Part shown: positions 1,287 to 28,458 of the stretch, in pieces
Layout: each line of letters starts with the position of its first letter
Position numbering within the stretch: the first letter of the stretch is position 1
Source of the DNA: Candidatus Jorgensenbacteria bacterium
GTDB lineage: Bacteria > Patescibacteriota > Minisyncoccia > UBA6257 > GWB1-50-10
Direction of reading: 5' to 3'
DNA: 64,000 nucleotides
Assembly: GCA_043807585.1 (NCBI GenBank)
Contig: JAZDFV010000001.1
Location: forward strand, 46,590-110,589
Notes under the pieces: model-generated
Database searches by the model: none
Seen by the model: only the letters and a program-made list of their open reading frames with translations
Told to the model about the DNA's origin: nothing
Made by a program: the position numbers and the translations under genes

Positions 1287-2855
1287 TTACGGGGGTATCG
1301 GGAGACCCTTCAGGAGTTCCTGGAGTCCCTTCACGCCCGACTTCACGAGCTTATTCACGATGGAATCCTCGATTGTCTGGAGGAACATCGAGACATCCTG
1401 GGTGGCGGCGAGGTTGTCGAGGTCCACCTGCGAGGCGCGCTCGGCGAGCCCCGCGGCGACGGTGGCCGGGCTCGTGATCTTCTCATTCTCACACTCCCAG
1501 AAGTAAGAGTAGTCATTTTTCCAGAAGCGGGTTCCTTTCCCCACTGGTCCTGTTTGAGGATCTTTATTGAAGCCGCCCACAACGTTCCCGTCGGAGTCCA
1601 CGGGACCTATCGCCCCGTCAGGTGTCTGGTCGTTGGCGTATACGAAATTGCCTATTTCCAGTTCTGAGATTCGGTAGTCGGTAAGCGTATGTCCTCGTTC
1701 CATACCCTCGGCGATGTACTTCGTCCACTGGGTGCACTGCTTCACTGGCACAAATCCGCGTGCCTGCTCAAGGCGCGCATTTTCGGCGGCGGTGGCTTGC
1801 TGCCGCGCCGCCTCATCAATGAGTGAGAGCGAAGCACCGTAGTAGTTGTTCTGCGGTTGGAGCATCTCATTGTAGGCGACCCACCCTCCCTGCCGGAAGT
1901 CCTGGTAAAAGTTCTCTACATTTGCGACCACCTTGTCCAGTGTGCAGGTGATCTGCTCATAGAAAGGATTGTCTTCGCGCCGCACTGATGGGATTTGGAG
2001 CTGTACGTTTAAGCGGAACGGTTCGCAGAGACGCGGGGCGACCCGCGAGATGAAGCGGTCAACCGCGAGGCGACCCGTGTCTTCCAAAAATTTTCCCGGC
2101 TGTTTTATGAACTGCGGCGCCTTGCCGCTCTGTATCCAATCCACGATCTGGGTGGAGAGCTGGTAGAGGAGCGCTTTCTTGATGGTCTCGTTCGTCGTCT
2201 TCAGGAGTTCGGCGCACTTCGCGCGCGTGTCGGCGTTTACCTCCGCAATCTTTTGCTCTTTAATTTGCTTGTTTAATTTTTCCTTAAGCTTCTTTAAAGT
2301 CACTTCCTGCCGCGCTATAGCTCTCTCGTCTATTGTTGGCACGGTGGTGAGTCCGGCGGCTACGTCCGCCGCGCTCCTTACCGCCTCTTCGGCAGCATCT
2401 CTCGCGTCTTCGAGGGCAGATTCTCTCCCAATAGTTTTTAACTCCTCGCTTAAAATGTTTTCTATATCAGCCATCTGCTTATCTACCTCGGTTTTCATCG
2501 TGTTTCCGATGAGCCCATTGAAGGTGTTGCTCACGAAGTTACCCGCTGCGTCATATGCGCTCTGTTTAAGCGCGTTTATATCCAAGCCGATTTTTCCTAA
2601 TATCTCGTTCTGGACATAACCCACCATTTTATCGAGAACGGCGGTTTGGATTTTTGCTCTAAAATCTATATTTAGGGCAGCGAGGCGCCCGAAGCGGGTT
2701 GCGATTTCGGCTGCCTTAGCACAGAGCTCCATGCCGGGGGCTACCTTATTAGTTGACTGCGCGAGCGCCGTCGGGGGAAACGGAAACACGCCCCCCACCA
2801 TTAACGCGATGATGAGTAGTACCACGACAAAACCTTCCCTAAATGAGTTTCTCAT
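1287..2855 (-). CDS. secreted or membrane-anchored hypothetical protein with a coiled-coil-rich middle (522 aa)
   Basis: Long ORF with an N-terminal hydrophobic signal/TM (VVVLLIIALMVGGVF). EK-rich heptad-like segments. Same strand as the flanking genes, probable operon. Confidence 0.6.
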   Translation of the reverse strand: MRNSFREGFVVVLLIIALMVGGVFPFPPTALAQSTNKVAPGMELCAKAAEIATRFGRLAALNIDFRAKIQTAVLDKMVGYVQNEILGKIGLDINALKQSAYDAAGNFVSNTFNGLIGNTMKTEVDKQMADIENILSEELKTIGRESALEDARDAAEEAVRSAADVAAGLTTVPTIDERAIARQEVTLKKLKEKLNKQIKEQKIAEVNADTRAKCAELLKTTNETIKKALLYQLSTQIVDWIQSGKAPQFIKQPGKFLEDTGRLAVDRFISRVAPRLCEPFRLNVQLQIPSVRREDNPFYEQITCTLDKVVANVENFYQDFRQGGWVAYNEMLQPQNNYYGASLSLIDEAARQQATAAENARLEQARGFVPVKQCTQWTKYIAEGMERGHTLTDYRISELEIGNFVYANDQTPDGAIGPVDSDGNVVGGFNKDPQTGPVGKGTRFWKNDYSYFWECENEKITSPATVAAGLAERASQVDLDNLAATQDVSMFLQTIEDSIVNKLVKSGVKGLQELLKGLPIPP

Positions 2856-3618
2856 CGGTGATTTTTTTGTTTATCGCGGTCTGTATCTCTTGGAATTCGC
2901 GGTCGGCCTCCGCGGGAAGGAGGCGCGTCGCGGCGATGAGGTAGCGGAGCGGGTCCACATCAGCCGCGCCGAGCGAGCGGTAGATGTTCCGCTGTCGCAG
3001 GAAGAACGCGACGAGGTCGCGGTGCACGGTGAGCCACGAGGACGGCACATTCACCGCCTTCAAGAGCTCCGCGGTGTGGTCCAACGCGGCGGCGGTGTCA
3101 CCAAAGAACGCGGTGAGCGATGGCGATGAGGCGAGGTCTGGGAATTTATCACTTTGCGCCTCAAGGATCCGGTCTATGAAGAGCAGATACGCAAGTTGGG
3201 TGTCTTTGGAATCCGAGGCGTTCACATTGAGATCGGACTCCTTGATTGCTTCCGTGGCGAGTTCAGTGTCAATTATTTTTGAGACGATGGCGGCGACGTC
3301 CGCCTTCTCCGGGAGGAGCTTGGGGGTTTGGGCTGTTTCGCCGCCCGCCTTGAGCGTTTCGTTTTGCGCGATGAGCCGCTCGAGCGCCTGGTCGGTGAAC
3401 TCATTGGTGAGATTGGGCAGTGCCCGCACAAAATTAAGGTTTTGGGAGAGCGCGCCGGCGGCAGGCGCCCCAAAGCCGGGCGTGCCGCCCATGTTTTTCC
3501 CCGGAGCCGTTGCGAGTACAAGATAGACGCTCGCGGCGAGAGAGATGCCGAGGATGGCAACGGAGAAGAGTGCGCGACGACCGCGCGTCGAACTCGGAAA
3601 AGGTATATGCACGCGCAT
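2839..3618 (-). CDS. membrane-anchored hypothetical protein
   Basis: ORF 2839..3645 with start trimmed to ATG 3618 (MRVHIPF), preceded by GGAGG and a TATAAT box (tatataatagggaggaaATG on the minus strand). TM helix ALFSVAILGISLAASVYLVLA. Confidence 0.55.
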   Translation of the reverse strand: MRVHIPFPSSTRGRRALFSVAILGISLAASVYLVLATAPGKNMGGTPGFGAPAAGALSQNLNFVRALPNLTNEFTDQALERLIAQNETLKAGGETAQTPKLLPEKADVAAIVSKIIDTELATEAIKESDLNVNASDSKDTQLAYLLFIDRILEAQSDKFPDLASSPSLTAFFGDTAAALDHTAELLKAVNVPSSWLTVHRDLVAFFLRQRNIYRSLGAADVDPLRYLIAATRLLPAEADREFQEIQTAINKKITDEKLI

Positions 3619-3691
3619 TTCCTCCCTATTATATACCATCAACACAAAAGTGTCTCTCGAAAGAAGCGTTTTTGCGTGGTGAATTATCTTG

Positions 3692-4354
3692 TCATGGGCA
3701 GAGCTTTTTCAGAAGGTCCCCTACCAGCGGAATACTACCTATGACCGCGTTGCAGACCATTGAAGCGCCTTTGAAAATTACGCCTTCTATGGGTACGCCG
3801 ATTGGAGAACCAGAGCCAATCTGGTAAATGAGATTATCTACAGGGCAACCACTGGCCGATGCGAGTTGGCAGATTTCATCGAGTAATTCTTCCGAGATTG
3901 GGATAGATTTGCAGAGGTTTTTTGCGAATCCGGTGCCGACTTTCTCTCCCACTTCCTCTACCTTTTTACAGATACCGCAGAGGTCAATTGAGTTGCCGAG
4001 GACGTTGGTCCCGGGAACAAAGTACGCGAAGTTTCTCTTTACCGCGTTGATGTTTGGTATTGGCACCAACTCCACCCGGAGGAGGCCAAGCGTGGCTGAT
4101 GTCGGATCGCCCACGTCAATTTGTTCTATGGTCACGAGTGTCGTGAAAAAGGTAGCGACCAGTATGGGAAGTGTAATCTCACTTATGCAGGCGGCGGGTG
4201 CTGGGACATAGCTTTTAACCTTACCCCCGAAGGGAGTGAAGATTTGGAGCGCGCGTGTCTCACTTGGAGCACCCATCGCGATAATTCCTGCCACGAGCGC
4301 GAACGCCGTGATGTATGTCGCGAGGCGGACGTGTTTTGGGTGGTGCGGCTCCAT
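3692..4354 (-). CDS. Cys-containing small membrane protein, hypothetical
   Basis: ORF 3692..4363. N-terminal TM (YITAFALVAGIIAMGA). Several Cys pairs (CGICKK, CQLASASGC). Start uncertain. Confidence 0.45.
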   Translation of the reverse strand: MEPHHPKHVRLATYITAFALVAGIIAMGAPSETRALQIFTPFGGKVKSYVPAPAACISEITLPILVATFFTTLVTIEQIDVGDPTSATLGLLRVELVPIPNINAVKRNFAYFVPGTNVLGNSIDLCGICKKVEEVGEKVGTGFAKNLCKSIPISEELLDEICQLASASGCPVDNLIYQIGSGSPIGVPIEGVIFKGASMVCNAVIGSIPLVGDLLKKLCP

Positions 4355-4359
4355 ACCAC

Positions 4360-5358
4360 TCAAGTATAGCGCAACGACGCGATAGAGAGGATATCCTCCA
4401 CCGAGAGGTCTTGCGGGCGCCCCTCCGGCTTCATTCCCGCACCGCGCAGTTTCTCCGCGACCTCATGTCGTGCAACGCGCGGGTCTCCCGCGGTAAGGTT
4501 GTTGAGGATGGTCTTCCGCGGCTGTTTGAAAAGTGCATGGACGAGAGTGTAATACGCCGCAGGGTCGTATGCGGGCACTTTGGTGTCCAAGGCGAGGATG
4601 GCGGAGTCCACCTTCGGCGGTGGGCTAAATTCTTTTCTTGGAATGTAGCCGACGATGGTCGGCGCAGCCCAAAGTTGGATGCTCGCCGCCAATAAATTCA
4701 TTTTTGGCGGTTTCGCGATTATCCGTTCCGCGACCTCTTGCTGGACGGTGAGAACTACCCGAGTAATCAATGATTGATGATTGGTAATTAAATCACCAAT
4801 GACGCGCAAAAGCCGCCCGGTGAGATAGAAGGGAATATTTCCGACTATTTTATAGTTGGGATTTCTAATTTCCCCGCCTGTGGCGACCTGCGCTTCGTCG
4901 AAGGCTTCTCGCCTCGTCTCCGACGACGAGTCGGAGCGGGCGGCAAGGTGAGGGCTTCGGCGGGCGGGTAATTTCAAATTTCTAATCAATTTTGGAAGAA
5001 TTTTCAGAACATCACCTTCAATGATTTCAATTTTGGAATTTTGTGGTTTGGAATTTGTTTGGGAATTGTCCCGACCTTGTCGAGGACTCGCGACGAAGTC
5101 GGAGGAAATCGTCTCCATACGGGAGATCCCGCGAAGCGGGAGAAATTGGAAATTTTTTCTGAGTGAGGCAACCAACAAAGAATCTCGTTCTATGAGAATA
5201 AAGCGCGCTCCTGGCGTTTTTATCAACTCCTTGGTGAGCTCCCCATGCCCTGGGCCTATTTCCACCACCGTGTCGCTGGGTTCAAGTTCGAGCGCCCCCG
5301 CGATGCGGCGGAGATATATTCGAGATTCAAGAAAATGTTGCCCTAATCGTTTTCCCAT
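4360..5358 (-). CDS. rsmA: 16S rRNA (adenine1518/1519-N6)-dimethyltransferase RsmA/KsgA, with an ~50-aa inserted segment
   Basis: Motifs KRLGQHFL, VVEIGPGHGELT and NIPFY. ORF is 337 aa where ~265 is usual. Start placed at the second Met (MGKRLGQHFL). Confidence 0.85.
   Translation of the reverse strand: MGKRLGQHFLESRIYLRRIAGALELEPSDTVVEIGPGHGELTKELIKTPGARFILIERDSLLVASLRKNFQFLPLRGISRMETISSDFVASPRQGRDNSQTNSKPQNSKIEIIEGDVLKILPKLIRNLKLPARRSPHLAARSDSSSETRREAFDEAQVATGGEIRNPNYKIVGNIPFYLTGRLLRVIGDLITNHQSLITRVVLTVQQEVAERIIAKPPKMNLLAASIQLWAAPTIVGYIPRKEFSPPPKVDSAILALDTKVPAYDPAAYYTLVHALFKQPRKTILNNLTAGDPRVARHEVAEKLRGAGMKPEGRPQDLSVEDILSIASLRYT
4969..5068. repeat. AT-rich repeat tract (GAAATTC / TTGGAATTT units) embedded in-frame in rsmA
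   Basis: Local GC drops sharply. Units shared with intergenic copies at 19650-19810 and 33055-33170. The ORF reads through. Confidence 0.7.
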
Positions 5359-13177: not shown

Positions 13178-14065
13178 ATGACCGAAGTCCAAAAACTAGT
13201 AAAAGAGTATCTGGACTACCTGGAGATCGAGAAAAACCGCTCCCCGAAGACGCGGGAGAACTACACCCACTACCTTCATAAGTTCCTAGAGCTCTCCGGG
13301 GCGCGGACGGTGCGCGACGTTAGCGCGGAGGCGGTGCGGGAGTTCCGGATTACGCTCGCGCGGAAGAATTTGAAGAAAAACACCCAGAGCTACTACGTGA
13401 TCGCACTCCGCAACTTCCTGAAGTACCTCGTGCGCCGCGGTATCCCCGCGCTCCCTCCGGAGACCGTGGAGCTCCCGAAGGTTGCGAGGCGCGACATAGA
13501 GGTGCTCTCCTACCCCGAGCTCGAGCGCATCCTTGCGGCCCCAAAAGGAAGCGACCTTCGCACCCTCCGCGACCGCGCCATCCTGGAAGTTCTCTTTTCT
13601 ACCGGCCTTCGTCTCTCTGAACTGTGTGCCCTCCCCCGCTATATGGATCTCGCCCGCGGCGAGCTTTCGGTGCGCGGTAAGGGAGACAAGTTGCGTGTGG
13701 TGTTCTTCTCTGAGAGCGCAAAGCGGGCCCTCAAGGAGTATCTTGGGAAGCGGACCGATACCGAGGAGGCACTCTTTGTGAGCTTGGACCGACGCGGACA
13801 AGTGATCGGGAAGATCACTCCGCGGGCGGTCGAACGCCTCGTGGAGACCCGCGCGCGTGAGGCGGGAATCGCTAGGTTTCGGGTTCATCCACATCTCGTC
13901 CGTCACGCGTTCGCAACCGACCTCCTCATCAACGGCGCCGATCTCCGCTCGGTGCAGGAACTCCTGGGGCACGCGAACGTCGCGACCACGCAGGTCTACA
14001 CCCATCTCACGAACCAGGAGCTCCGGGAAGTGCACAAGGCCTTCCACGGTCGCCGCCGCTCGTAG
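13178..14065 (+). CDS. tyrosine site-specific recombinase, XerC/XerD family
   Basis: RHAFATDLL, LGHANVATTQVYTHL and a catalytic Tyr region. Start trimmed to MTEVQKL, where TATAAT lies 6 nt upstream (possible leaderless transcript). Confidence 0.85.
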   Translation: MTEVQKLVKEYLDYLEIEKNRSPKTRENYTHYLHKFLELSGARTVRDVSAEAVREFRITLARKNLKKNTQSYYVIALRNFLKYLVRRGIPALPPETVELPKVARRDIEVLSYPELERILAAPKGSDLRTLRDRAILEVLFSTGLRLSELCALPRYMDLARGELSVRGKGDKLRVVFFSESAKRALKEYLGKRTDTEEALFVSLDRRGQVIGKITPRAVERLVETRAREAGIARFRVHPHLVRHAFATDLLINGADLRSVQELLGHANVATTQVYTHLTNQELREVHKAFHGRRRS

Positions 14066-14203
14066 CGGCTTTAGCGAACCAAGCCCGCCGTCGTCGCTGA
14101 TTCCTTCTTTTGACGGTGCCTGCGGGGTAGGGTAGGCTCAAGGCAGGCGCTTTATAGTCAACGATTTCTGACCGATTTTCCGAAAAGGAAGGAGGCGTGC
14201 ATT

Positions 14204-14620
14204 ATGTTCCCACGATATGACGGAAATGTCCTCGGGTGTGCTGGGCGGTTTCTGCGAGCGATCATCGAACATCGTACGGATCTCACCCAGCGGTGGCGGC
14301 TCGAGATGGACGACGAGGGGAATGTGAGCGTGTTCTGCAGTATGGCATCGCCCGACCCCGTCCTCAAAGAGTTCGATGCTGCGTTCTTCGAGCGGCACGG
14401 TCTCAACGCTGACCGCTGGTCTCCGGTGCTTCGGTTTCCGTGGGGTGAGCCGTGGAAACCGTACGTTCCCGGTTCGCAGGACCACGCGGGGAACATGGAC
14501 GTTGGGTGGCGGTACAGTGGAGCACCCACGGCAGCTACCGCCCTTGGAGACCAAGAGGAGGAGACCTCGGCAGCCACAGGTTCCGGAAGATCCACGTTTC
14601 CAAGAAAGATAATGGATTGA
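14204..14620 (+). CDS. hypothetical protein (138 aa)
   Basis: ORF with an AGGAGG RBS 7 nt upstream. No recognisable motifs. Confidence 0.4.
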   Translation: MFPRYDGNVLGCAGRFLRAIIEHRTDLTQRWRLEMDDEGNVSVFCSMASPDPVLKEFDAAFFERHGLNADRWSPVLRFPWGEPWKPYVPGSQDHAGNMDVGWRYSGAPTAATALGDQEEETSAATGSGRSTFPRKIMD

Positions 14621-14716
14621 ATCGAAGGAAGGGATTGTTTTATGGAAAGCGAAAATCCGCTCTGTTAATTGGAGCGGATTTTTCGTTGTGGGCAAGCTGC
14701 CTCTGTTTTGCTCCGG

Positions 14717-14799
14717 TGGGCAGGGTGGGATTCGAACCCACATGGACTTGCGTCCGCCAGCTCCTAAAACTGGTGCGTCTGCCGTTCCGCCACCTGCCC
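14717..14799 (-). tRNA. tRNA-Leu (anticodon TAG), type II with a long variable arm
   Basis: Manual fold of the minus strand. Acceptor GGGCAGG/CCTGCCC, anticodon stem CCAGT/GCTGG, anticodon loop TTTAGGA, variable arm GGAC-gcaa-GTCC, T-arm GTGGG-TTCGAAT-CCCAC, discriminator A. Confidence 0.85.
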
Positions 14800-14913
14800 C
14801 GGTTTTTATTGTAGGCGGAACGGGACAATTTGACAAATATTATGTTCTGTTATAGAATTTAACCAGCAAATAAGCAACTGAATTAAGGATAAACTACTGG
14901 AAGGAGAAATCTT

Positions 14914-15999
14914 ATGCCCGAACTAATAACCGTACTCATTGTTATCTTTTCATGCTGCATTCTTGAATTTCTGCTTTCGCTGAGATGGGTCAAGCCAGAT
15001 CCACCCCACAAGGGTATCCGCACCTTTCTTGGTGAGCGGGAGCCAGTGTTGGTGGATGAGGGCTTGAACCTCCTCCTCTTCCCACTCTTCGGGCACATCC
15101 CCGTGAAAGTCGAACAGATAGTTATGAATTTGGAGGAACAGGAAGACCTGCGCCCCCCCGACGGATCGGATCTCGTATGTTCAGCTTCGCTTACTCTTGT
15201 ACCCGCGTGGCAGGTGATGGAGAATGGGCAGCCGCGGAAAACCGCAGAACTTCTCATCAAATTCAAGAACGCCGGTGGTGCAGAGGGAGTCCAAGCCCAG
15301 CTGAAAGTTATCTTGCAGGAGCGATTGCGGCAGTGGGTGCGCTCCCCCAGGGAGGGCCCGCAAAATTGGGAAGAGGCGGTGGCAGCCCAGGAGGATGCCG
15401 CCGCAGTACTCCTCAAGGCGATACTGGGAGACCAACTCACACCCATTCCAGCACCTTTTCCCACCACCGTTCTTCTCCATTACTTCTTGGAGCCGCGACC
15501 GGTCCCCACGACGGCCGAGGTAACTTCTTTCGGGAAGAACTGGGAGACGATAGACGAATATTTCAAAGGGAAGGACGAGGAACGCAAAAAGGTGGCAGAG
15601 GCTGTTAGAGATAGGAGAAAAGAGATAAGGGAGGCGCGCGAAGGGAACGGTTCCCTGATCCACCGTCACCTTGGCGTCGCGATATGTCGCCTGAATATCA
15701 CCAAGATAAAGGTGGTTGGGAAGCTTGCCGATGCCGCCGAACTCAGGGCAACAGAGGAGCAAGAGCGGAAAGCGGAGGTATACGAGGTGGGGACCGAAAT
15801 CGAGAAGGCGAGGCTGCTGGTGGAAGCGGTGGAAGCGAAGGGTGAGAAGCTTTCCACCCAGCAGGCCTACCAGGTCATAATGGAATGGAAGACGACGAGA
15901 GAGGGTAAGGGATACACCATCCCTGGACTTTCTCCGGTGATTGAGGCAGCTCTCAGAGCCATTTTCCCCACCACGTCAAAGATCGTTTCATCCAAGTAG
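14914..15999 (+). CDS. SPFH/band-7 (stomatin/prohibitin/flotillin-like) domain protein
   Basis: N-terminal TM, then an SPFH-like core (GIRTFLGEREPVLVDEGLNLLLFP ... VKVEQIVMNL), then an EA-rich coiled-coil tail (RATEEQERKAEVYEVGTEIEKARLLVEAVEAKGEK). GGAG RBS. Confidence 0.6.
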   Translation: MPELITVLIVIFSCCILEFLLSLRWVKPDPPHKGIRTFLGEREPVLVDEGLNLLLFPLFGHIPVKVEQIVMNLEEQEDLRPPDGSDLVCSASLTLVPAWQVMENGQPRKTAELLIKFKNAGGAEGVQAQLKVILQERLRQWVRSPREGPQNWEEAVAAQEDAAAVLLKAILGDQLTPIPAPFPTTVLLHYFLEPRPVPTTAEVTSFGKNWETIDEYFKGKDEERKKVAEAVRDRRKEIREAREGNGSLIHRHLGVAICRLNITKIKVVGKLADAAELRATEEQERKAEVYEVGTEIEKARLLVEAVEAKGEKLSTQQAYQVIMEWKTTREGKGYTIPGLSPVIEAALRAIFPTTSKIVSSK

Positions 16000-16014
16000 A
16001 GAAAGGAGTACGCG

Positions 16015-16419
16015 ATGTCCAAGAAATGGATATTGATAGGAGGGGTTGCTATTGTGGTGCTGGGGGTGATCCTCGTGCTGTTACTCTCTGGGGGCAAGAA
16101 GCCGCCAGATTTATCGGGGGCTAACCAGTGGAAACCGGCTCAGGTACCACCACAGTCGTGGGTGCTCAATAAGCCCGGGGTGTGGGTGATGACGGTGACG
16201 AGTTTGGATACGGTCACCTGGTCGCCCACTTCCTACAAGATTTGGGCGGACAGGCCATATCGTGCCGCGGTCTATCCTTCCGGGTCCGGAGGGCAGCGGA
16301 GGGAGTACTCGATGCCAGCGGCACCGAAGTACTACCACGGCGCGCCGGGTCTCATAGATCACCTGGAGGTGATGGCTATTGATACCCTCACCGTTTTCTG
16401 GGCCCAGCGAGTAATGTAG
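16015..16419 (+). CDS. small single-TM protein; possible NfeD-like partner of the SPFH protein (speculative)
   Basis: AAAGGAG RBS. TM helix ILIGGVAIVVLGVILVLLL plus a ~100-aa C-terminal domain. Confidence 0.5.
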   Translation: MSKKWILIGGVAIVVLGVILVLLLSGGKKPPDLSGANQWKPAQVPPQSWVLNKPGVWVMTVTSLDTVTWSPTSYKIWADRPYRAAVYPSGSGGQRREYSMPAAPKYYHGAPGLIDHLEVMAIDTLTVFWAQRVM

Positions 16420-16468: not shown

Positions 16469-16554
16469 TGACAAATTTAGGGGTTTATGCTATCCTCCAA
16501 TTAGAATCTGAACAACTATTAAAACCGAATTAGGACAATTAAGGAGTGATTGTC

Positions 16555-17418
16555 ATGAAAAATCTTGGATCTGTAGAGAAAAACGCTCCGAATTTCAAAG
16601 GAATATTCAGAACGTTGGTTGTCGTATTTATTGTCCTTGCTGCATTTCTGCTCCTCATTGCTGCTGGCCAACTCGTCTTTTTCTTTGAGATGTTTGGTTG
16701 GTTTCAGCATCAAGTAAGGAGTTTGACTGGAGCTGACGTGTTGATCGCGAACGGTATCGCAGCGGTCATCATGGCGATCATTTTCGCCCTCCCCTTGTTG
16801 GCATTTCTTAGATCATTTCTGCCATTTCCGCAGAGGAAACGTGTTATGTACCGCGTTTCGATACTCTCCTTTTTTGCCATTCTCTTTTTCGCCTCGTACA
16901 TCCTTTCCCAGGACGTGTTTTTCGATCCGGATACGGGAGCGCCATTGAAGTACTACACCATTCGTCCGGATGGAGCGTACAAGTTCTATTCTACGGGAGG
17001 ATATGATGCTTTTACTGGCGACACCCTAAAAAGGGTTACAAAGGAAGTTGTGCTCCGCTATTCTGGTTTCCGCGATAGCAAACCGTCATCAGAGCGTCCG
17101 TCGGTTACTGCAAACACCGTGCAGCAGTTTGAAGCCAAAGAGGGGCAGGTATGGGTGAAGGCGGGTGAGCAGATCACCGATACGCTTGAAATGGGGCGAT
17201 GGTCTAAGCTTTTCCACCTCCCCCCTGACCACAAGAAGTTTTCCATGGATGTTTCTGAGGAGTTCCATGGAATACGGTTTTGGGATGGAACGGAGTGGGA
17301 TCGTGCGCAGATTCTCAACTATTTGAAATCGCACGATGGGTGGATGAGCACCGTGCCGTCAGCCTCCTTCCGGCTCCGCGGGAAGGGAGTTGTCACCATT
17401 ATGGTGGCAGCCAAGTAG
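16555..17418 (+). CDS. membrane protein (4 predicted TM) with a C-terminal soluble domain, hypothetical
   Basis: AAGGAG RBS 8 nt before ATG 16555. Local GC is lower than elsewhere in the window. Confidence 0.55.
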   Translation: MKNLGSVEKNAPNFKGIFRTLVVVFIVLAAFLLLIAAGQLVFFFEMFGWFQHQVRSLTGADVLIANGIAAVIMAIIFALPLLAFLRSFLPFPQRKRVMYRVSILSFFAILFFASYILSQDVFFDPDTGAPLKYYTIRPDGAYKFYSTGGYDAFTGDTLKRVTKEVVLRYSGFRDSKPSSERPSVTANTVQQFEAKEGQVWVKAGEQITDTLEMGRWSKLFHLPPDHKKFSMDVSEEFHGIRFWDGTEWDRAQILNYLKSHDGWMSTVPSASFRLRGKGVVTIMVAAK

Positions 17419-17430
17419 AAACAGTAACGA

Positions 17431-17470
17431 ACCCCGTTGAGGAAAACTCAACGGGGTTCTTATATTTTGC
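17431..17470 (+). terminator. rho-independent terminator, near-identical copy of the one at 16427
   Basis: AACCCCGTTGAG-gaaaa-CTCAACGGGGTT followed by cttatatttt. Confidence 0.7.
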
Positions 17471-17480: not shown

Positions 17481-17816
17481 TTAGCACCCGCTCGCGGAGG
17501 TGCAGAGGAGCGCTTTCGTGAGCGCGATGATGCCGGTGGCGAGGATAGCAGTCGCGACCGCGATGACCGCGTAGATGAGTTGTTTCTTCGCCGCCTCCAC
17601 CTTTTCCGCGCTTTCGCCTGCGGTGAGGAACGTGAATGCGGCGAAAATGATAAAGACCACGGCAACGGCGAGGAGAACGGCATAGGCCCAGCCACTGAAC
17701 TTATCTATGGCGGCAATCACCTTTGTCGGCGTGTCGATGTCCGAGGCCGCGAGAGCGGGCGCGGGGGAAAAGAGAGCGGCGGCCGTGAACCAGAAACTTT
17801 TAATGGGTAGTTTCAT
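17481..17816 (-). CDS. pilin-like small protein P1 (TrbC/VirB2-like T4SS-pilin architecture)
   Basis: Signal peptide (AALFSPAPALA) and two hydrophobic helices separated by a short charged loop (AAFTFLTAGESAEKVEAAKKQLIYAVIAVATAILA). Cys-containing C-terminus. Confidence 0.6.
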   Translation of the reverse strand: MKLPIKSFWFTAAALFSPAPALAASDIDTPTKVIAAIDKFSGWAYAVLLAVAVVFIIFAAFTFLTAGESAEKVEAAKKQLIYAVIAVATAILATGIIALTKALLCTSASGC

Positions 17817-17833
17817 AGCGCTTTAGTTTGCCG

Positions 17834-18274
17834 TTACGGAGGAGAGCAACTCCAGTCCCAGGTGTTGCAGATTTGGCCTGGTGGGCAGTAGACAGTGCCG
17901 CATAGTACTCCGGTGGGCGTTGTGAAAAACACCTGCGTGAGGTACACGATGCCGGTGGCGAGGATGGCCACCGCAAGCGCCACCACGGCGTAGATGATGT
18001 AGTTCTTTGCCTCCTTCACCTTCTCCTCATCTCCCCCGGATGTGAGGAAAAGGAAGGCCGCATAGACGATGAAAACCACAGCGAGGGCGAGGATGATGCC
18101 CCAGAACCACCCGCCCAGTTTCACGAGGAGCGCCACCACCGCATCGATTGGTGATGCGCTTGTTGATACGACCGACGTAGGCGGCGCGTTGGTGACCACA
18201 GCGCTTGCGAGGAGAGGGAGGAGCGCGGCCACTCCTATCGCTACCCATACCGACCTCGGCGTTTGCATGTGCAT
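17834..18274 (-). CDS. pilin-like small protein P2, with a Cys-rich C-terminal tail
   Basis: Core FLFLTSGGDEEKVKEAKNYIIYAVVALAVAILATGIV. Tail CGTVYCPPGQICNTWDWSCSPP. Confidence 0.6.
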   Translation of the reverse strand: MHMQTPRSVWVAIGVAALLPLLASAVVTNAPPTSVVSTSASPIDAVVALLVKLGGWFWGIILALAVVFIVYAAFLFLTSGGDEEKVKEAKNYIIYAVVALAVAILATGIVYLTQVFFTTPTGVLCGTVYCPPGQICNTWDWSCSPP

Positions 18275-18370
18275 ATTATAAGTGAAACAAAACCTCCCCG
18301 GTTACTTTCCCATTGTACCACAGCGTGTGGGGATGGGAAGCTCCAGGGGAGGTTTTTACGCTCCATGGTT

Positions 18371-18721
18371 TTAGATCGTCTGCCCGAAGAATACAGTCGT
18401 TACTACATACACGATACCTCTTGCGAGAACGCCAATTGCAATCGCGATGATGGCGTAGACAAGGTAGTTTTTCGCCGCCTTCACCTTTTCCTCATCGCCA
18501 CCGGAGGTGAGGTAAAGGAATGCTGAGTAGAGGATAAAGAGGACCGCGACGGCAACGAGGATGCCGAAGAACCAGTTCCCGATTTTTGTGATGAGAGCAG
18601 TGATGTCGGCGTAGCTGCTTATATTTTGTGCCAGAGTCGGCGGCTGCGCGCCCGCGAAGAGCGGTAGAGCCAAAGCCCCAACCATGGCAATTCCCGCGCC
18701 GATCTTCATAATTGATTTCAT
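18371..18721 (-). CDS. pilin-like small protein P3
   Basis: Core FLYLTSGGDEEKVKAAKNYLVYAIIAIAIGVLARGIV. N-terminal signal peptide. Confidence 0.6.
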   Translation of the reverse strand: MKSIMKIGAGIAMVGALALPLFAGAQPPTLAQNISSYADITALITKIGNWFFGILVAVAVLFILYSAFLYLTSGGDEEKVKAAKNYLVYAIIAIAIGVLARGIVYVVTTVFFGQTI

Positions 18722-18884
18722 TTTTTATTTTGATTCATTTTTAGGACCCGACCTTTCCGGGTAGTAGAACTTCGACTTGTTTTATATCCGTTCGCTCCGC
18801 GAACCAGTCGAAGTTTCACTACCCGGTTTTATTGTGTCTTTTTATTAGTGTTATTGGTGGTTTCCATTTGTGTACATTCGTGGT

Positions 18885-19286
18885 TTAAGGAGGGTTCGTA
18901 GTGAGCAATTTCTCAATAATAGACACCAATCCCCATCCGACGAAGATGATACCATAGCCCACCACCGCGTACAAGATGGTCTTCCGCCCCGTGCCGAATT
19001 TCTCCGGGTTGCCGCCCGCGAAGAGCATCTGGAACGCGCCGTAGATGATCATGACCGCCGCGATTGGCGCCGCCACAAGCACGAGCCAGTCCACGATGCG
19101 GCGCGCGAGCGTTTCCACGGTCGCGGTAGTGCCGAGGGGGTTAGGGAGGCAAATCCGCCCCGCGGGGCATTCAGCGATATCCCCGATTCCCTGGGTAGTT
19201 GCTGGGAAGAGCAACACGAGCGTTAGGCTGGTTACGATCGTGACAAGTGCCAAGGAAAAGTATCTCATGGTTGCTGACAATTCCAT
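18885..19286 (-). CDS. pilin-like small protein P4
   Basis: ORF 18885..19628 trimmed to Met MELSATMRYF; its ATG overlaps the stop of P5 (TAATG). Core AFQMLFAGGNPEKFGTGRKTILYAVVGYGIIFVGWGLV. Confidence 0.55.
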   Translation of the reverse strand: MELSATMRYFSLALVTIVTSLTLVLLFPATTQGIGDIAECPAGRICLPNPLGTTATVETLARRIVDWLVLVAAPIAAVMIIYGAFQMLFAGGNPEKFGTGRKTILYAVVGYGIIFVGWGLVSIIEKLLTTNPP

Positions 19287-19648
19287 TATATCACCGCGCA
19301 GGTCACCTGTGACCACGGGAGACCGGGATTCCCCGAGAGGAGCTGGAGAAGCTCGTTTATGAAAAGCCACGCGACGAGCGCAATGACGAGGCCAGTGACC
19401 GCTGCGGTCATGGTTTTCCGGCCGCCGGATACACGCTCCTCCGAACCGCCGGAGGTCACAAGCTGGATCGCGCCCCAGACGATCATCCCTACCGCGATCA
19501 CGAAAGCGATCTGCCAGAGGAACTGGATGATGTTCGAGGTGACTACCAAGGCGTCGCAGAAATTGCATGGGCCGGTGGGGCCGCCGGTGGTGATGGCAGA
19601 GGAAGCTCCGCACCTTGCTCCCTCCCAAATGTTGGCAATGATAGACAT
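19286..19648 (-). CDS. pilin-like small protein P5
   Basis: Core AIQLVTSGGSEERVSGGRKTMTAAVTGLVIALVAWLFI. Cys-containing N-terminal region. Confidence 0.55.
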   Translation of the reverse strand: MSIIANIWEGARCGASSAITTGGPTGPCNFCDALVVTSNIIQFLWQIAFVIAVGMIVWGAIQLVTSGGSEERVSGGRKTMTAAVTGLVIALVAWLFINELLQLLSGNPGLPWSQVTCAVI

Positions 19649-19872: not shown

Positions 19873-21183
19873 TCAGTATCGCATCCGTGACATGATCTGG
19901 GTTACCTGCCCCGCGGCATCGCGGAGGATGGCGGTGATCTGGTCCGGGTGCCCTTGGGCCCTCGCGATCATGTCGGAGAAAACATCCCGGACCGCGTCGG
20001 GGTCCGCCTGCGGCCATGAGCGCGCGGTGAGCATCTGGTTCGCAAATGTGCCGAGCTCGGGGTCGCTCTCAAATGACGATTTCAAGGCGAGGAGCGCGGG
20101 CGGGCGGCGGGTGGTGACGGCGTACTGCCGGGCACCGGACGCGTTCGTGGTGAGGTTCACAATGAACTGCCAGGCAAGGTCGGGTGCGCGGCTCTGGCGC
20201 GCCACCCCGTATCCCCAATAGCGTGGGTAAGCCACGGGAATTTTCGCGGCGCCCGATTGCGGCATTGGGGCAATGCGGTAATCGAGGAACGCGTTTTTGG
20301 CTCTCATCTCCGCAATGAATGAACTGTCCTTGAATATCATCGCGAGCCGCTCCGCAGCCCATAGGTTGTCCGCGGATGGGAGTGCGTCGTTCCACGTGTA
20401 GGCGCTGCTCCTCGGGTCCGCGAACTGTGCGTAGAAGCGGAGCGCCTGTGCTCCCTCGTTGGAGTCAAACGTCGCTCCAGCGAGGTCCGGCGACACCATT
20501 TTTGTCCCAGTTTGGAGCATAAGGAGCGAGAGTAGGTCAGCCGCCTCGCGCACTGTTTTTGCGGAACCACCGAGGGGAGCCGCTGCTTGTGTGATATTCC
20601 CCTTGCTGTCGATGGCCACGAACTTGGGCACAATCGTCTGGAATTCCTCCCATGTCGCTGGGGGGAGCGCCACGCCCGCGCGATCGAAGAGGTTTCGGTT
20701 GTAGAAGAGAGCGAGGGTGTCAACGGAGAGCGGGAGGCCGAAGATGGAGCCCTGTGGCGCAAAGTCCTGCTCCACTACTTTGGGGAAGAGCTGGCGCAGC
20801 TGTGTGAGGGTGAACCGAGCCGCTGGTGCTGGGAAAAGTTTTCCCGAGTCCCGGAGCACGTCGCGGTTTTCTACTGCGAAGATGTCAGGGCCTCGGCCCG
20901 CCGCGAGCGCGTCCAAGAGCGCCCGCCCGTACTCCCCTGTATCCATGAAGTTACGGTAGGTAACCGTGACGTTGGGGTAGATGGCCTTGAAGCTTTGGAT
21001 GGACGGGTCAATGGCCTCGCTGCGGTCCAGGCCCCACACCGTGAGGGCGCCGGTTACGCTTACCGGTCCAGTGCCTCCCCTCAAGCCCGGGAGTACGCCG
21101 GCGAGGACGAGCCCAAGGAGAACCACCACGAGGGCGACGACGCCGCCGATGATGAGTTGCGGTTTGGTGAGATTAACGGGCAT
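19873..21183 (-). CDS. extracellular solute-binding protein (ABC transporter SBP, family 1-like)
   Basis: 436 aa with an N-terminal TM anchor. LTVWGL ... GPDIF ... pattern typical of the SBP_bac_1 family. Confidence 0.7.
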   Translation of the reverse strand: MPVNLTKPQLIIGGVVALVVVLLGLVLAGVLPGLRGGTGPVSVTGALTVWGLDRSEAIDPSIQSFKAIYPNVTVTYRNFMDTGEYGRALLDALAAGRGPDIFAVENRDVLRDSGKLFPAPAARFTLTQLRQLFPKVVEQDFAPQGSIFGLPLSVDTLALFYNRNLFDRAGVALPPATWEEFQTIVPKFVAIDSKGNITQAAAPLGGSAKTVREAADLLSLLMLQTGTKMVSPDLAGATFDSNEGAQALRFYAQFADPRSSAYTWNDALPSADNLWAAERLAMIFKDSSFIAEMRAKNAFLDYRIAPMPQSGAAKIPVAYPRYWGYGVARQSRAPDLAWQFIVNLTTNASGARQYAVTTRRPPALLALKSSFESDPELGTFANQMLTARSWPQADPDAVRDVFSDMIARAQGHPDQITAILRDAAGQVTQIMSRMRY

Positions 21184-21271: not shown

Positions 21272-23809
21272 CTACAAGCAAACTATTCCTATCAATTTAT
21301 CTCCCTCGCCTAAGTCCATAATCCTTACCCCCTGTGTCGCGCGCCCGGCGACACGAATAGTGGCGAGTTTCGTCCGGAGCGCCTGGCCTTTTGATGAGAA
21401 CGCAAGCACCTCTTCTTCGTTTCCCTCAACGACCATCGCCGCGATCAGCGGCCCCGTCTTCCCGGTGACCTTTGCGGTGAGTATCCCTCCGCCCCCGCGC
21501 CGCTGCAGCTTGTACTCCTTCAAAGGCGTCTGCTTCGCAAAACCGTTTGCGGAGACCACCAGCAGCTTTGAGCTTTGAGCTTTGAGCTTTGAGTCCCCCA
21601 TTATTATATCAAGCCCCGCTACCGTGTCGCCTGGGCGGAGCCGCAGGCCCCTGATGCCGGCGGCGGCACGCCCCATCACCCGCACATCCTTCTCACGGAA
21701 GCGGATGGAGTGTCCTTTCGCGGTTGTGATGACGAGTTCATCGGAACCCGACGAGAGCTTGGCCCAGCGGAGAGCGTCCTTCCCTTTGAGCTTCAAAGCG
21801 ACAATGCCGTTCCGGCGCACGTTCACGAAATCCTTGAGTGCGGTCTTTTTAATGAGGCCTCCCGTGGTCGCCATCACCAAGTACAATGACTTTTGACGAT
21901 GACTATGACTTGATTTCTGCCGGTCATCGTTATGGTCATTGTCATAGTCGGTTGCGTGGAGCAGCCGCGCGTTTCCTTCCTCATAGCTCACCACCGCTGT
22001 GACGCGTTCCCCCGGCGGGATGGTGAGAAAATTTTGGACGAGTTTTCCCTTTGCGGTCCGCGCGGCCACCGGGATCTCATACGCCTTGGTTTGGAACACT
22101 TTTCCGCGGTCGGTGAAGAAGAGGACGTTCGCGTGGGTGGAAGCGGAGAGGATCTGGTGGATCTGGTCCTCATCCTTGAGCTCAAAGCCGATGGTTCCCT
22201 TCCCGCCGCGGCGCTGGGCGCGGAATGAGGTCGGGGGGAGCCGCTTGATATATCCGTCCTCGGTGAGGACGATAACCGCCTCTTCCTTGGCAATGAGATC
22301 CTCTTCGCGGAATTCCGTGAGGCCCGAAACCACCACACGCGTTTTCCGCGGACTCGGGAACCGCCCCTTGAGTTCCACCGCTTCTCCGAGGACCAGGTCC
22401 GTGATCTTCTTCGGGTGGGCGAGAATGGATTTGAATTCGGCGACGAGCTTTTGTTTTTCTTTGAGTTCCGCCTCCAGCTTCTCGCGCTCGAGCGCCGCAA
22501 GCGTCTGCAGTTTCATCTCCAGAATGGCGTTGGCCTGCACCTCGGTGAACGAGAATTGTTTTATAAGGTTCACTTTGGCGGCCTCGCGGTCCTTCGATTT
22601 CTTGATGGTGGCGATCACTTTATCGATAACGTCAAGCGCCTTCACGAGTCCCGCGAGAATGTGGGCGCGCTCCTCGGCTTTGCGGAGATCGAACCCGGTG
22701 CGGCGGCGGATGACGGTTGTGCGGTGCTCAAGGTACGCGGCGAGCACCTCTTTCAGGGAAAGCACCTGCGGCTGGATGCCATCCACGAGAGCGAGCATGT
22801 TGAAGTAAAAATTCTTCTGGAGCTCGGTGTACTCGTAGAGCTGGTTCAGGATCTTCTGTGGAGTCGCGTCGCTCTTGAGGTCTATCACAATGCGGAGCCC
22901 ATCTCGGTCGGATTCGTCGCGTAGGTCGCGAATACCCTCGATCTTCTTTTCCTGGACGAGCTCGGCAATCTTGGTCACGAGATCCGACTTGTTCACCTGG
23001 TAGGGAATTTCCGTCACCACGATCTGGAACGCGCCGCGCGACTGGGCGCGCTCCTGGATTTCAGCGACGCCGCGGATGGTGACGGAACCCTTGCCGGTGG
23101 CGTACGCTTCCCCCATCGCTTTCCGGTCGTAGATAACGCCGCCGGTGGGGAAATCGGGGCCGGGTATGAACTTCATAAGGTCGGCGGTGGAGGCGTCGGG
23201 GTGCGCGGCCAGGTAGGAGATGGCGTCCACGACCTCCCCGAGATTATGGGGCGGGATTGAGGTAGCCATGCCGACCGCGATTCCAACGGCGCCGTTCAGG
23301 AGTAGGTTGGGGAGCCGTGCGGGTAGGTATTTCGGCTCCACGCGCGTCGCATCGTAGTTCGGGATCCAGTCCACCGTGCCCTTTTCAATATCCATAAGGA
23401 GCTCCTCGGCAACCTTCGTGAGGCGCGCCTCCGTGTATCTCATAGCCGCCGGCGGATCCCCATCGAGTGAACCCCAGTTACCCTGGCCGTCCACGAGCGG
23501 ATAGCGAAGGGAAAAATCCTGCGCCATGCGTGCCATCGCATCGTAGACCGCCATGTCGCCGTGCGGGTGGTAGCGGCCCAAAACGGTGCCAACAACGTTT
23601 GCCGACTTCCGAAACTTCGTGTCGTGCGTGAGGCCGTCGTCCCACATGGCCCAGAGAATGCGCCGTTGCACCGGCTTCATGCCGTCTCTTACGTCCGGGA
23701 GGGCGCGCGAAACAATGACCGACATCGCGTAATCCAGGTACGATTCACGGAGCTCTTTGGTGATCTCCTGCGCTTCTATGCGATCGTATGCGTGGTTTTC
23801 TTTTTCCAT
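21272..23809 (-). CDS. gyrA: DNA gyrase subunit A
   Basis: [16 protein letters not shown], and [12 protein letters not shown] with the active-site Tyr region. C-terminal beta-pinwheel repeats. The 5-prime extension of the ORF (21272..24076) is rejected; start placed at MEKEN. Confidence 0.95.
21564..21591. repeat. (AGCTTTG)x4 heptamer tandem repeat embedded in gyrA
   Basis: Four perfect copies. The ORF reads through. Confidence 0.8.
21881..21951. repeat. AT-rich palindromic insertion in gyrA (GACGATGACTATGAC ... GTCATTGTCATAGTC), same family as 21185-21270
   Basis: Encodes [21 protein letters not shown] in-frame. Confidence 0.7.
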
Positions 23810-23816
23810 GATTGGG

Positions 23817-24299
23817 TTATTGCCCCTCTCCCTTCGCTGGCGCCTGCGGGAGCAAGACTGGCGGCACCGTTTGGAGATCAGGCGGCATGGATGAGGAAGC
23901 GGAGGATGTGGCGGCGGCATTTTCCCCTCCGAGAGTGAATTGGTTCTCGCGCTCCACGGTTTCCCGGAGGGAACGGAACGTTTGAGTGGTTTCTTCCTTC
24001 GCGCGTTCCCACTCTCGGGCGATGTCATCCGAGATCGCCGAAAATCCCCTCCCGAGCGTTTTCCCGAATGTATCACCTGCAGATTTCTCTGGAATTGGGG
24101 GTGGGCTCTCGCTCTGCGCTGTGGAAGGCAGAGTAATGTTCAAATAGACCACCCAGAGCACTACGACCACTACCATGGTCGTTACTGAGGCCGCCGTGAG
24201 CCAGCGTTTTCTGCTGGACTCTGGGGCGCGCTGGATCCGCCCGAGGCGAACTCTAAGGCGCGCGCGTAATGTTTCCAGTTTAGGTCCGATGGGAGACAT
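23817..24299 (-). CDS. small membrane protein upstream of gyrA, hypothetical
   Basis: ORF 23817..24341 trimmed so it does not overlap the preceding gene. TM helix [17 protein letters not shown]. Confidence 0.45.
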
Positions 24300-28457: not shown

Positions 28458-28458
28458 C

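Follow-up and report, generated by a model that had tools for sequence, protein, structure and literature searches.

Layout of the array and its surroundings

Five open reading frames stand in a row on the minus strand between positions 17481 and 19648 of the window, the 64,000-nucleotide stretch of a Candidatus Jorgensenbacteria MAG whose six-frame ORFs were analyzed. Read along that strand they are P5 (19286-19648, 120 aa, the first gene of the array), P4 (18885-19286, 133 aa, or 127 aa if started at ATG 19268), P3 (18371-18721, 116 aa), P2 (17834-18274, 146 aa) and P1 (17481-17816, 111 aa, the fifth gene), and these coordinates bear out the original prediction of five consecutive same-strand genes of 111-146 aa. 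Each gene has its own start and full length, the paralogues are 21-51% identical to one another, and neither silent cassettes nor signs of gene conversion were found among them. A family HMM run over every six-frame ORF in the window matched P1-P5 and no other; they are therefore clustered far beyond chance. A 290-aa membrane protein (16546-17418) with a weak HMM match was considered as a sixth pilin and rejected, because its match is confined to a single TM helix and it shows no relationship to the extended pilin that the related locus L006 encodes.

The helix-loop-helix architecture that had been predicted agrees with hydropathy, which gives two strongly hydrophobic helices and a short charged linking loop in each of P1-P5, and with the AlphaFold2 models of P3 (helices 37-71 and 77-112, pLDDT 83.9) and P5 (helices 30-64 and 70-105, pLDDT 89). 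The core AAFLFLTSGGDEEKVKEAKNYIIYAVVALAVAILATGIV and the tail CGTVYCPPGQICNTWDWSCSPP quoted in that prediction are present, both of them within P2, and so is the 1-nt overlap (TAATG) at the junction where the ATG of P4 overlaps the stop codon of P5. The start of P4 is ambiguous, i.e., this overlapping ATG at 19286 or the ATG at 19268 (M7), the latter in agreement with the L002 orthologue, which begins with MRYF.

The further claims that every gene encodes a signal peptide and that the variable tails carry clustered cysteines stood only in part. P1 to P4 have a signal peptide (predicted cut AGA|QPP in P3, ALA|ASD in P1), as claimed; P5, which starts with MSIIANIWEGARCG, has none, its ATG being preceded by no more than 6 open codons. 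The signal peptide is likewise missing in the P5 orthologues of two further lineages, although most of 42 homologues of the P5 subfamily do have one. Cysteines occur at positions 13, 28, 31 and 117 of P5, at 40 and 46 (N-tail) of P4, at 125, 130, 136 and 143 of P2 and at 105 and 111 of P1. The claim fails for P3, which has short tails and no cysteine, and for P5, in which the cysteines are conserved in the subfamily. P4 combines its signal peptide with an NPLG motif and the pilin core; in P2 the core is followed by a 22-aa C-terminal tail with four cysteines (nt 17837-17902), similar to that of the homologue P0015, and in P1 by a C-terminal CTSASGC.

Directly upstream of the array lies the gene of a membrane-anchored orphan solute-binding protein (SBP_bac_1; 19873..21183, minus strand), which occupies this position in every related locus examined (L001, L012, L016/L017). 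The gap between SBP and P5 (19649..19872, minus strand) is an AT-rich leader with imperfect 7/14-nt tandem repeats and presumably holds the array promoter; the corresponding gap, 237 nt long in L012, is just 20-26 nt in L001 and L016. Between P4 and P3 there is a near-perfect hairpin of 70 nt (18757..18826, minus strand; fold z -4.6), present in one copy in the window, near-identical in L001 and absent from L002. The gap between P3 and P2 is also structured (18283..18365, minus strand; fold dG -40.5 kcal/mol, z -4.9), with a long hairpin AAAACCTCCCC...GGGGAGGTTTT and a T-run enclosing a conserved extended -10 TGTGGTACAAT, the promoter-like site (18339-18312), promoters and terminators of CPR being poorly known. 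The element TGTGGTAyAATGG is kept in L001 and L002, both with a classical terminator CCCTCCCCTTGCGGGGAGGGTTCTTGTTT just upstream. A hairpin at 17429..17459 (13-bp stem, dG -27.4 kcal/mol, z -5.5) ends both the array and the convergent gene at 16546-17418 and reads as a strong bidirectional intrinsic terminator, again with the reservation that terminators of CPR are poorly known. None of the intergenic hairpins matched Rfam. A gene for a XerC-like integrase and a tRNA-Leu also lie near the array. The edge of a mobile island, which these two could mark, was rejected as a reading because the gene order from integrase to array is kept in related genomes; the L002 gene at the integrase position has no Pfam match on record.

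Family membership and conservation of the paralogues

All five proteins exceed the curated gathering threshold of the Pfam family PF18895 (T4SS_pilin; 26.6 bits), with 38.9 bits for P1, 48.4 for P2, 53.7 for P3, 49.5 for P4 and 43.0 for P5, which supports the original assignment to VirB2/TrbC-type T4SS pilins of a family reported from CPR. They also have the architecture of PF18895 (two helices, a charged loop and usually a signal peptide), except that P5 lacks the signal peptide. For TrbC/VirB2 (PF04956) none of the five reaches the gathering threshold of 27.9 bits; sub-threshold matches over nearly the full profile length were obtained for P4 (23.6 bits, E 5.9e-5) and P1 (20.4 bits, E 6e-4), and no match to this family for P2, P3 and P5 in Pfam. 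The NCBIfam model NF045849, the Mollicutes/Mycoplasma-ICE "Mbov_0395 family pilin-like conjugal transfer protein", gave 38.2 (P3), 34.6 (P2), 26.2 (P1), 25.1 (P4) and 13 bits (P5), all below its curated cut-off of 40 bits, with E-values that are significant for P1-P4 (8.5e-10 in P3 to 1e-5). Neither Foldseek on the PDB nor a profile search of its sequences found a VirB2/TraA match; the latter returned only chance matches to designed proteins. Homology to PrgF of pCF10 was not detected by hhalign of the A1 profile (probability 0.2), a weak test with a single-sequence target.

Two other lineages of Jorgensenbacteria have positional orthologues of the array genes, in 1:1 correspondence. P5 (77-82% identity), P4 (61-67%), P3 (72-77%) and P1 (61-67%) are conserved about as GyrA (76%; PNPase 77-84%), and P2 alone is fast: its orthologues are only 47-52% identical, and over three genomes the conservation of its C-tail amounts to 9%. 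From these comparisons P2 appears to be the one fast-evolving gene of the array, and it is probably the host-facing subunit. Conservation is 9-59% in the tails as against 51-81% in the cores, and Cys-rich tails appear and vanish between lineages (e.g., the tails of the P1 orthologues lack the Cys pair). P3 is of the five the closest to the family consensus and is 100% identical to V1696_00375 from a Candidatus Jorgensenbacteria MAG. Its similarity to the consensus, the terminator-like structures and the amplification of its type in a relative make it a candidate for the major subunit.

In the P5 subfamily C28, C31, N39, G59 and C117 are invariant among 42 homologues and C13 is kept in most; C28 and C31 form a CxxC-D motif and C117 is C-terminal. 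P5 belongs to a distinct, widely conserved subfamily of PF18895; when metagenomes were scanned with P5, the population of L002 was all that came back. The order of a P5-type gene followed by a P4-type gene, adjacent or overlapping, recurs in L010 and L016. In L016 four P3-like copies (74-84% identical) stand inside a GyrA-SBP-array-Band_7 frame, and the array lies between SBP_bac_1 and Band_7 genes in relatives down to 58% GyrA identity. The array has the appearance of a conserved, closely spaced head pair, one gene of P5-type and one of P4-type, with a duplication-prone P3-like tail. Relatives also encode fused "polypilins" of 7 and 8 units (P0262 and P0257), a hint of co-assembly, as well as pilin-PKD and pilin-Cys-rich fusions, the C-terminal extensions of which suggest outward-facing C-termini and surface display on a projecting structure.

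T4SS genes near the array

The original prediction stated that no VirB4/VirB11-type ATPase lies within the window, which is literally correct, but a T4SS operon does enter it. At its left edge, which the gene runs off, a VirB6/TrbL-like polytopic membrane protein is encoded (1-1283, minus strand), about 16 kb from the array and on the same strand. The full protein has 479 aa (V1696_00275; P0017, 100% identical). The part in the window has no Pfam match; 10 of 43 homologues match TrbL (PF04610; best E 2.2e-6), among them P0050 with 26.6 bits against a cut-off of 25.9. In L006 and L008 the VirB6-like orthologue is followed by one gene, then by PrgI/VirB3 and then by VirB4, and the orthologous array, PrgI and the N-terminal gene of VirB4 lie on one contig (L001/L008). 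The search for T4SS machinery that had been proposed thus found a VirB6-like gene in the window and PrgI/VirB3 and VirB4 behind it in syntenic relatives. With the VirB4 of L006 as query, no V1696 entry was among the best 120 matches, which were Paceibacteria proteins 78-93% identical; from the synteny with L006 and L008 we infer that the source genome probably encodes a VirB4.

The VirB6-like gene and ksgA (4360-5373) flank the genes of three conserved secreted or membrane proteins of 522, 268 and 223 aa (1287..4363, minus strand), all with signal or TM segments and without a match in Pfam or NCBIfam. Their order is the same in L008 (46-76% identity), and that of the 268- and 522-aa genes also in L006 (30-38%); they are probable accessory components of the T4SS. 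The array itself is 12-16 kb away from the T4SS genes; what separates it from the operon is a 12-kb stretch of housekeeping genes.

Proposed function and alternative readings

We propose, with a probability of roughly two in three, that P1-P5 are paralogous VirB2-like subunits (PF18895) of a chromosomal, MPF-FATA-related Patescibacteria T4SS, assembled as follows. P1 to P4 would be Sec-exported and then processed by signal peptidase, and P5 would insert into the membrane leaderless with its N-tail outward. All five would then be membrane-embedded helical hairpins with the conserved SGG-D/E-E-K loop in the cytoplasm and both tails outside, and from the membrane they may be extracted and polymerized on the VirB6-like platform with VirB4 as the driver. 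The product would be a short filament or conduit, the loop lining its lumen and the variable, partly disulfide-bonded tails forming its surface. The head pair, of which the P5-type member would be disulfide-stapled, is probably an initiator, tip or adaptor; P3, P2 and P1 would be P3-like tail genes that arose by tandem duplication, and the array as a whole would be a stable set and not a pool of interchangeable variants. Family membership, architecture, the pattern of orthology and the nearness of the T4SS operon are observed here; topology, polymerization and the role of each paralogue are inferred. The function is drawn from homology and gene neighborhood, as no PF18895 protein has yet been observed in a filament.

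The original prediction left a choice between antigenic or receptor variation and multiple minor pilins. Under the former, the paralogues would be fast-diverging tandem duplicates that provide alternative filament surfaces for different hosts or for evasion of hosts or phages, an idea also raised in PMC12102498. The low conservation of the tails compared with the cores, the rapid divergence of P2, the gain and loss of Cys-rich tails between lineages, the four recent P3-like duplicates in L016 and the short tandem repeats in the leader upstream of P5 would all agree with it. However, across three lineages all but one of the genes are in 1:1 orthology and conserved about as GyrA and PNPase, residues of the P5 subfamily are invariant in distant taxa, the genes are complete with their own starts, without silent cassettes or signs of gene conversion, and the fused polypilins imply that units are used simultaneously and not alternatively; furthermore, a pilin series is reported to be essential in Southlakia epibionticum (PMC10633639). 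We therefore consider antigenic variation improbable: only P2 and the tails evolve fast, and specialized co-assembling subunits of one T4SS filament are favored because four of the five genes have orthologues with housekeeping-like conservation.

The VirB2-like proteins might instead function without an extended pilus, either as part of a T4SS channel that is embedded in the membrane or spans the cell wall or, independently of a T4SS, in the envelope together with SBP and the SPFH/Band_7 protein. The housekeeping genes that separate the array from the T4SS operon, the persistence of the SBP-array-Band_7 frame down to 58% GyrA identity with SBP gaps of just 20-26 nt in L001 and L016, and the roughly 40% of Patescibacteria assemblies with VirB2-like genes in which these are not near virB4 (PMC12102498) point in this direction. 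Other PF18895 genes, however, do adjoin VirB4 (e.g., L006 16803-17711, and in 1135 assemblies according to PMC12102498), the PKD and Cys-rich C-terminal extensions suggest display on a projecting structure, and the linkage to SBP and Band_7 may be conserved synteny alone, so that this reading, too, has little probability in our view. That the five are unrelated small two-helix membrane proteins (holin-like, or T4P pilins) with a misleading Pfam name is hardly credible: the two-helix hairpin is a simple fold without a specific Foldseek match and the name of PF18895 was inferred from context, but no holin or other competing family was found for P1-P5 in Pfam or PHROGs, nor a T4P pilin family among the Pfam matches, none of the five contains the class III prepilin motif (G|FTLxE), and the neighbors are housekeeping, SBP and Band_7 genes, with no lysis or phage genes near the array in the window. 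The matches to TrbC/VirB2 and to the Mollicutes ICE family are independent and significant. The findings that had been named beforehand as speaking against pilins, i.e., holin-like homology or a lack of both pilin profile similarity and secretion machinery, were thus not made, given the PF18895 matches and the VirB6-like gene.

Within the preferred reading of co-assembling subunits, a bolder version can be offered tentatively, although we think it rather unlikely as a whole: the filament would be a heteropolymer of VirB2-like paralogues in fixed order or stoichiometry, nucleated or capped by a universally conserved, stapled P5-type subunit and the P4-type subunit, with a shaft of P3-like subunits that would carry lineage-specific surface modules. 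Speculatively, the N-tail and C-terminal cysteines of P5 might tie the termini together, as a disulfide analogue of the head-to-tail cyclization of T-pilin and TrbC, and in the polypilins (7-8 units) and the pilin-PKD fusions of relatives this assembly would exist in covalent form. To our knowledge all solved conjugative pili are homopolymers, and a heteropolymeric filament, if true, would therefore be a new pilus architecture.

Relation to known pilin systems

Pilin arrays of this kind are already known in Patescibacteria, as 441 VirB2-like arrays of 2-11 divergent genes each have been reported in 383 assemblies (Quinonero-Coronel et al. 2025, PMC12102498) and one pilin series, in the SEML1_0006-0019 region, is essential in S. 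epibionticum (Wang et al. 2023, PMC10633639); the Jorgensenbacteria locus is a further example. It shares with those arrays (PF18895/PF04956) the Pfam family, the phylum, divergent tandem genes (mean 25% and maximum 54% identity there, PMC12102498), the chromosomal location with no relaxase nearby and a monoderm MPF-FATA-like T4SS. Unlike them, it lies outside the T4SS cluster in its GyrA-SBP-array-Band_7 frame, and its host bears the NCBI name Jorgensenbacteria, whereas arrays are most abundant in Microgenomatia and Saccharimonadia (PMC12102498). A head pair with a P3-like tail and a leaderless P5 are not mentioned for the arrays in PMC12102498 and PMC10633639.

The classical TrbC/VirB2/TraA pilins (PF04956; T-pilus, RP4, F pilus) have in common with P1-P5 the small size, two hydrophobic helices and charged loop, both termini out, VirB6 and VirB4 as partners and usually a long signal peptide; the present locus differs in its five paralogues instead of one gene, its monoderm host and scores below the Pfam gathering threshold. 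We know of no cyclization enzyme for array pilins, unlike for classical conjugative pilins. PrgF and the NF045849 pilins likewise have a charged loop between the two TM segments of a hairpin, whether or not a signal peptide precedes it, and the VirB6-PrgI-VirB4 gene order of their systems resembles that in L006 and L008, but those systems are conjugative elements, each with only one pilin gene, and P1-P4 score 25-38 bits against the 40 required. A model of PrgF, a monoderm VirB2-like protein, shows it as a pilus that stands on a pentamer of VirB6 (bioRxiv 10.64898/2025.12.18.695078). Tandem amplification and divergence of a T4SS pilin gene in host-associated bacteria are also seen in the T4SSs of Bartonella (Trw) and Anaplasma, diderm pathogens whose multiple VirB2 paralogues have been interpreted as variant surface subunits (host range or immune evasion); in contrast to these, most paralogues of the Jorgensenbacteria array are old and conserved 1:1 between lineages.

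The Patescibacteria T4SS is essential for epibiotic growth in the one species tested, and pilin arrays distinguish it from other monoderm T4SSs. What the analysis of the Jorgensenbacteria locus adds is the pattern of 1:1 orthology, the structure of head pair and tail, and the polypilins of relatives, but no new category. With its positional orthologues, head pair, one fast gene and nearby T4SS genes it is a clean comparative case and can thus guide the choice of paralogues to be tested for the roles of initiator, shaft and host contact.

Identity and architecture of the five pilin genes

Five consecutive minus-strand ORFs lie in 17481-19648, as the original prediction held; in transcription order they are P5 (19286-19648, 120 aa), P4 (18885-19286, 133 aa), P3 (18371-18721, 116 aa), P2 (17834-18274, 146 aa) and P1 (17481-17816, 111 aa). 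The core quoted for them, the four-Cys tail of P2 and the TAATG junction were all found in the sequence. The proposed VirB2/TrbC-type T4SS pilin identity was borne out by Pfam PF18895 (T4SS_pilin), the gathering score of which was exceeded by all five proteins (38.9-53.7 bits vs 26.6). Significant yet sub-threshold matches were obtained with the Pfam TrbC/VirB2 profile (P4 and P1) and with NCBIfam NF045849, a Mollicutes ICE pilin-like conjugal transfer protein (P1-P4). Profile searches of P1-P5 returned no holin, T4P or any other competing family; holin-like and T4P pilin identities were rejected. The pilin-like reading of the array is supported, and a family-built HMM run against all six-frame ORFs of the window matched these five only. 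P3 is 100% identical to V1696_00375 on a 124-kb contig of a Candidatus Jorgensenbacteria MAG.

By hydropathy, all five proteins have two strongly hydrophobic segments with a short charged loop between them, and AlphaFold2 models of P3 (H37-71 and H77-112, pLDDT 83.9) and P5 (H30-64 and H70-105, pLDDT 89) are long helical hairpins. A signal peptide had been claimed for every gene, which fails for P5 (just six open codons precede its ATG); the claim of clustered cysteines in hypervariable tails holds for the four-Cys tail of P2 but not for P3, which has zero Cys, nor for P5, whose cysteines (C28, C31 and the C-terminal Cys) are invariant in its subfamily. P4 has two Cys, both within its N-tail, and may begin either at the ATG that overlaps P5 (19286) or at M7 (19268), the latter agreeing with the start of an orthologue.

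When 3,035 genomes of Patescibacteria were screened with the PF04956 and PF18895 profiles, 383 assemblies proved to hold 441 arrays, each of 2-11 VirB2-like genes, with identities that average 25% and reach 54% at most (PMC12102498; Quinonero-Coronel et al. 2025). Southlakia epibionticum has a predicted pilin series inside an essential T4SS cluster (Wang et al. 2023, PMC10633639), which a 2025 review (PMC12857230) singles out as the exception among the T4SSs of monoderms. In a December 2025 preprint (bioRxiv 10.64898/2025.12.18.695078), the VirB2-like PrgF of pCF10 is shown to be essential and is modelled as a pilus atop a VirB6 pentamer; some VirB2-like proteins of this type have a signal peptide and others lack one. 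Given these precedents, the window array adds an example to a kind already described.

Secretion machinery and genomic setting

Apart from the array, the window carries ordinary chromosomal genes (PNPase, GyrA, FtsH, FtsK, LeuRS, MurD, NusA, RecA, SHMT and others). The earlier statement that no VirB4/VirB11 ATPase lies in the window is literally correct, and VirD4 is likewise absent from the 64 kb, but a VirB6/TrbL-like gene of a T4SS operon is present at the left edge. This minus-strand operon (1-5373) runs from ksgA (4360-5373) through three conserved secreted or membrane proteins of unknown family (3692-4363, 2839-3645 and 1287-2855) to a VirB6/TrbL-like polytopic membrane protein (1-1283) cut by the window edge (V1696_00275, full length 479 aa); 10 of its 43 homologues match Pfam TrbL/VirB6 and no second family recurs.

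Operon counterparts occur in Jorgensenbacteria GW2011_GWB1_50_10 (L006, 9857-15716) and in L008 (5823-14176, continuing to PrgI/VirB3 and VirB4). In L006 one gene separates the VirB6-like orthologue from PrgI/VirB3, after which VirB4 is split between a TraC-like N-terminal gene and a P-loop_TraG/AAA_10/DUF87 gene; a few genes further on lies a protein of 302 aa that has a PF18895 domain at its N-terminus. The split VirB4 of relatives consists of a 190-215-aa TraC-like N-terminal gene and an ATPase gene of ~585-600 aa. A single 24.9-kb contig of GCA_043808525 (L001/L008) carries an orthologous five-pilin array together with ksgA, VirB6-like, PrgI and the VirB4 N-terminal gene, ksgA being ~10 kb from the array; the corresponding distance in the window is 12.1 kb, and 16.2 kb separate the array from the start of the VirB6-like gene, all on the same strand. 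From this synteny, VirB4 of the source genome probably lies just past window position 1.

Between comM and the ksgA-T4SS operon is a LysM and Peptidase_M23 protein (5484-6446, plus strand); some Patescibacteria VirB1-like hydrolases have these domains (PMC12102498). Elsewhere, a XerC/D-type tyrosine recombinase gene (13130-14065) lies beside tRNA-Leu(UAG) (14715-14799), which is overlapped by a 232-aa ORF that looks spurious (14138-14836). Just after ftsH, tRNA-Ile (anticodon UAU, uncommon among bacteria) and tRNA-Val (UAC) are adjacent (28386-28531). The 934-aa GyrA ORF (21272-24076) has a probably spurious 5' extension, the likely true start being MEKENHAY; that of L012 (4206-8072) has 1288 aa, and that of L001 (50-2872) a weak intein match.

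Conservation, expansion and fusion of the array

The frame GyrA-SBP-five pilins-small protein-Band_7 (SBP, an SBP_bac_1 solute-binding protein) is common to the window, L001 and L002, and synteny extends through the integrase position, S15, NYN and PNPase. Orthologues from first to fifth position are 77-82% (P5), 61-67% (P4), 72-77% (P3), 47-52% (P2) and 61-67% (P1) identical, against 21-51% among paralogues inside one array and, for reference proteins of the same genomes, 76% (GyrA) and 77-84% (PNPase), which indicates that the array is old and stably inherited. Across the three genomes cores are conserved at 51-81% and tails at 9-59%; lineage-specific features are the P1 and P4 Cys pairs and the four-Cys P2 tail, although a tail resembling the last is seen again in the homologue P0015.

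P5 is a member of a distinct subfamily that is widespread (376 representative clusters at E<=1e-10) and in which C28 and C31 (CxxC-D motif), N39, G59 and the C-terminal Cys are invariant across 42 homologues. Most members have a signal peptide, and the Jorgensenbacteria orthologues start exactly at the predicted mature N-terminus. The P5-type to P4-type order, adjacent or overlapping, is also found in L010 (55% identical relative) and L016 (GyrA 58% identical to that of the window). L016 keeps the GyrA-SBP-array-Band_7 frame with eight pilin genes, among them four P3-like copies (74-84% identical) and P0262 (10001-11821), a 606-aa polypilin, meaning a single ORF with one signal peptide and seven tandem PF18895 hairpin units. 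In another lineage, P0257 of L014 (9925-12387, 820 aa) has one signal peptide and eight such units and is followed by a pilin-PKD fusion; the cited papers make no mention of polypilins. Together, the recurring order, the L016 expansion and the fusions suggest a conserved head pair and a duplication-prone P3-like tail, of which P3, P2 and P1 of the window (39-51% identical among themselves) would be older products.

Pilins fused to C-terminal extensions, either PKD repeats or Cys-rich domains of ~170-190 aa, were seen in L014 (13152-14303, 14325-16481), L006 (16803-17711), L007 (7725-8663) and P0266, some adjoining VirB4, which suggests that the pilin C-terminus displays adhesin-like modules.

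Host-range versatility or antigenic variation has been suggested for such arrays (PMC12102498). That the window array is an antigenic or receptor variation system would suit its variable tails, the fast-evolving P2 and the recent L016 duplicates, but is contradicted by four genes conserved 1:1 at housekeeping level, an invariant P5 subfamily, the existence of fused polypilins and the reported essentiality; fast evolution is limited to P2 among the five genes. Alternatively, the array may have a non-filament membrane role, perhaps tied to the orphan SBP and Band_7 genes that always adjoin it. The membrane-anchored SBP_bac_1 (19873-21183) is always directly upstream (window, L001, L012, L016; gap of 20-26 nt in L001 and L016), with no ABC permease or ATPase gene beside it in the window, and the small membrane protein and SPFH/Band_7 protein (14914-16419) are always downstream, a linkage that holds as far as a genome with GyrA 58% identical. 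Between array and this pair, a protein of 290 aa (16546-17418, plus strand), which has three TM segments at its N-terminus and matches no family, is an insertion of this genome only; L001 and L002 lack it at the corresponding place.

Expression signals and putative assembly

Promoter and terminator calls around the array are consensus-level only. The leader upstream of P5 (19649-19872) is AT-rich with imperfect 7- and 14-nt tandem repeats (plus strand: TAAACTC x4.7, TTGGAATTTGGTGC x2.2, TTTCGGA x4.6); similar heptad repeats occur in L002/L012, and the spacer is almost zero in L001 and L016. The P4-P3 spacer holds a near-perfect 70-nt hairpin (18757-18826), single-copy in the window and without an Rfam match, that is nearly nucleotide-identical in L001, where the proteins are only ~76% identical, and absent from L002. 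After P3, a stable hairpin and T-run (z -4.9) encloses an extended -10, TGTGGTACAAT, which is conserved in L001 and L002, where a classical terminator lies immediately upstream; a strong bidirectional terminator (17429-17459) ends the array. This pattern would fit separate dosage control of P3, as for a major subunit.

Drawing on established VirB2/TraA pilus knowledge and the PrgF model, P1-P4 would undergo Sec export and signal-peptidase cleavage (sites ALA|AS, ASA|VV and AGA|QP, predicted by eye, satisfy the -3/-1 rule), and P5 leaderless insertion with its N-tail outward. In the membrane, all five would form hairpins with the SGG-(D/E)-E-K loop inside; VirB4 would power their extraction and their polymerisation on a VirB6-like platform. 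The lumen would be lined by the loop, and the tails would sit on the surface, disulfide-bonded wherever Cys is present. Under a bolder and less likely reading, the T4SS filament would be a heteropolymer whose initiator subunit is stapled by a disulfide.
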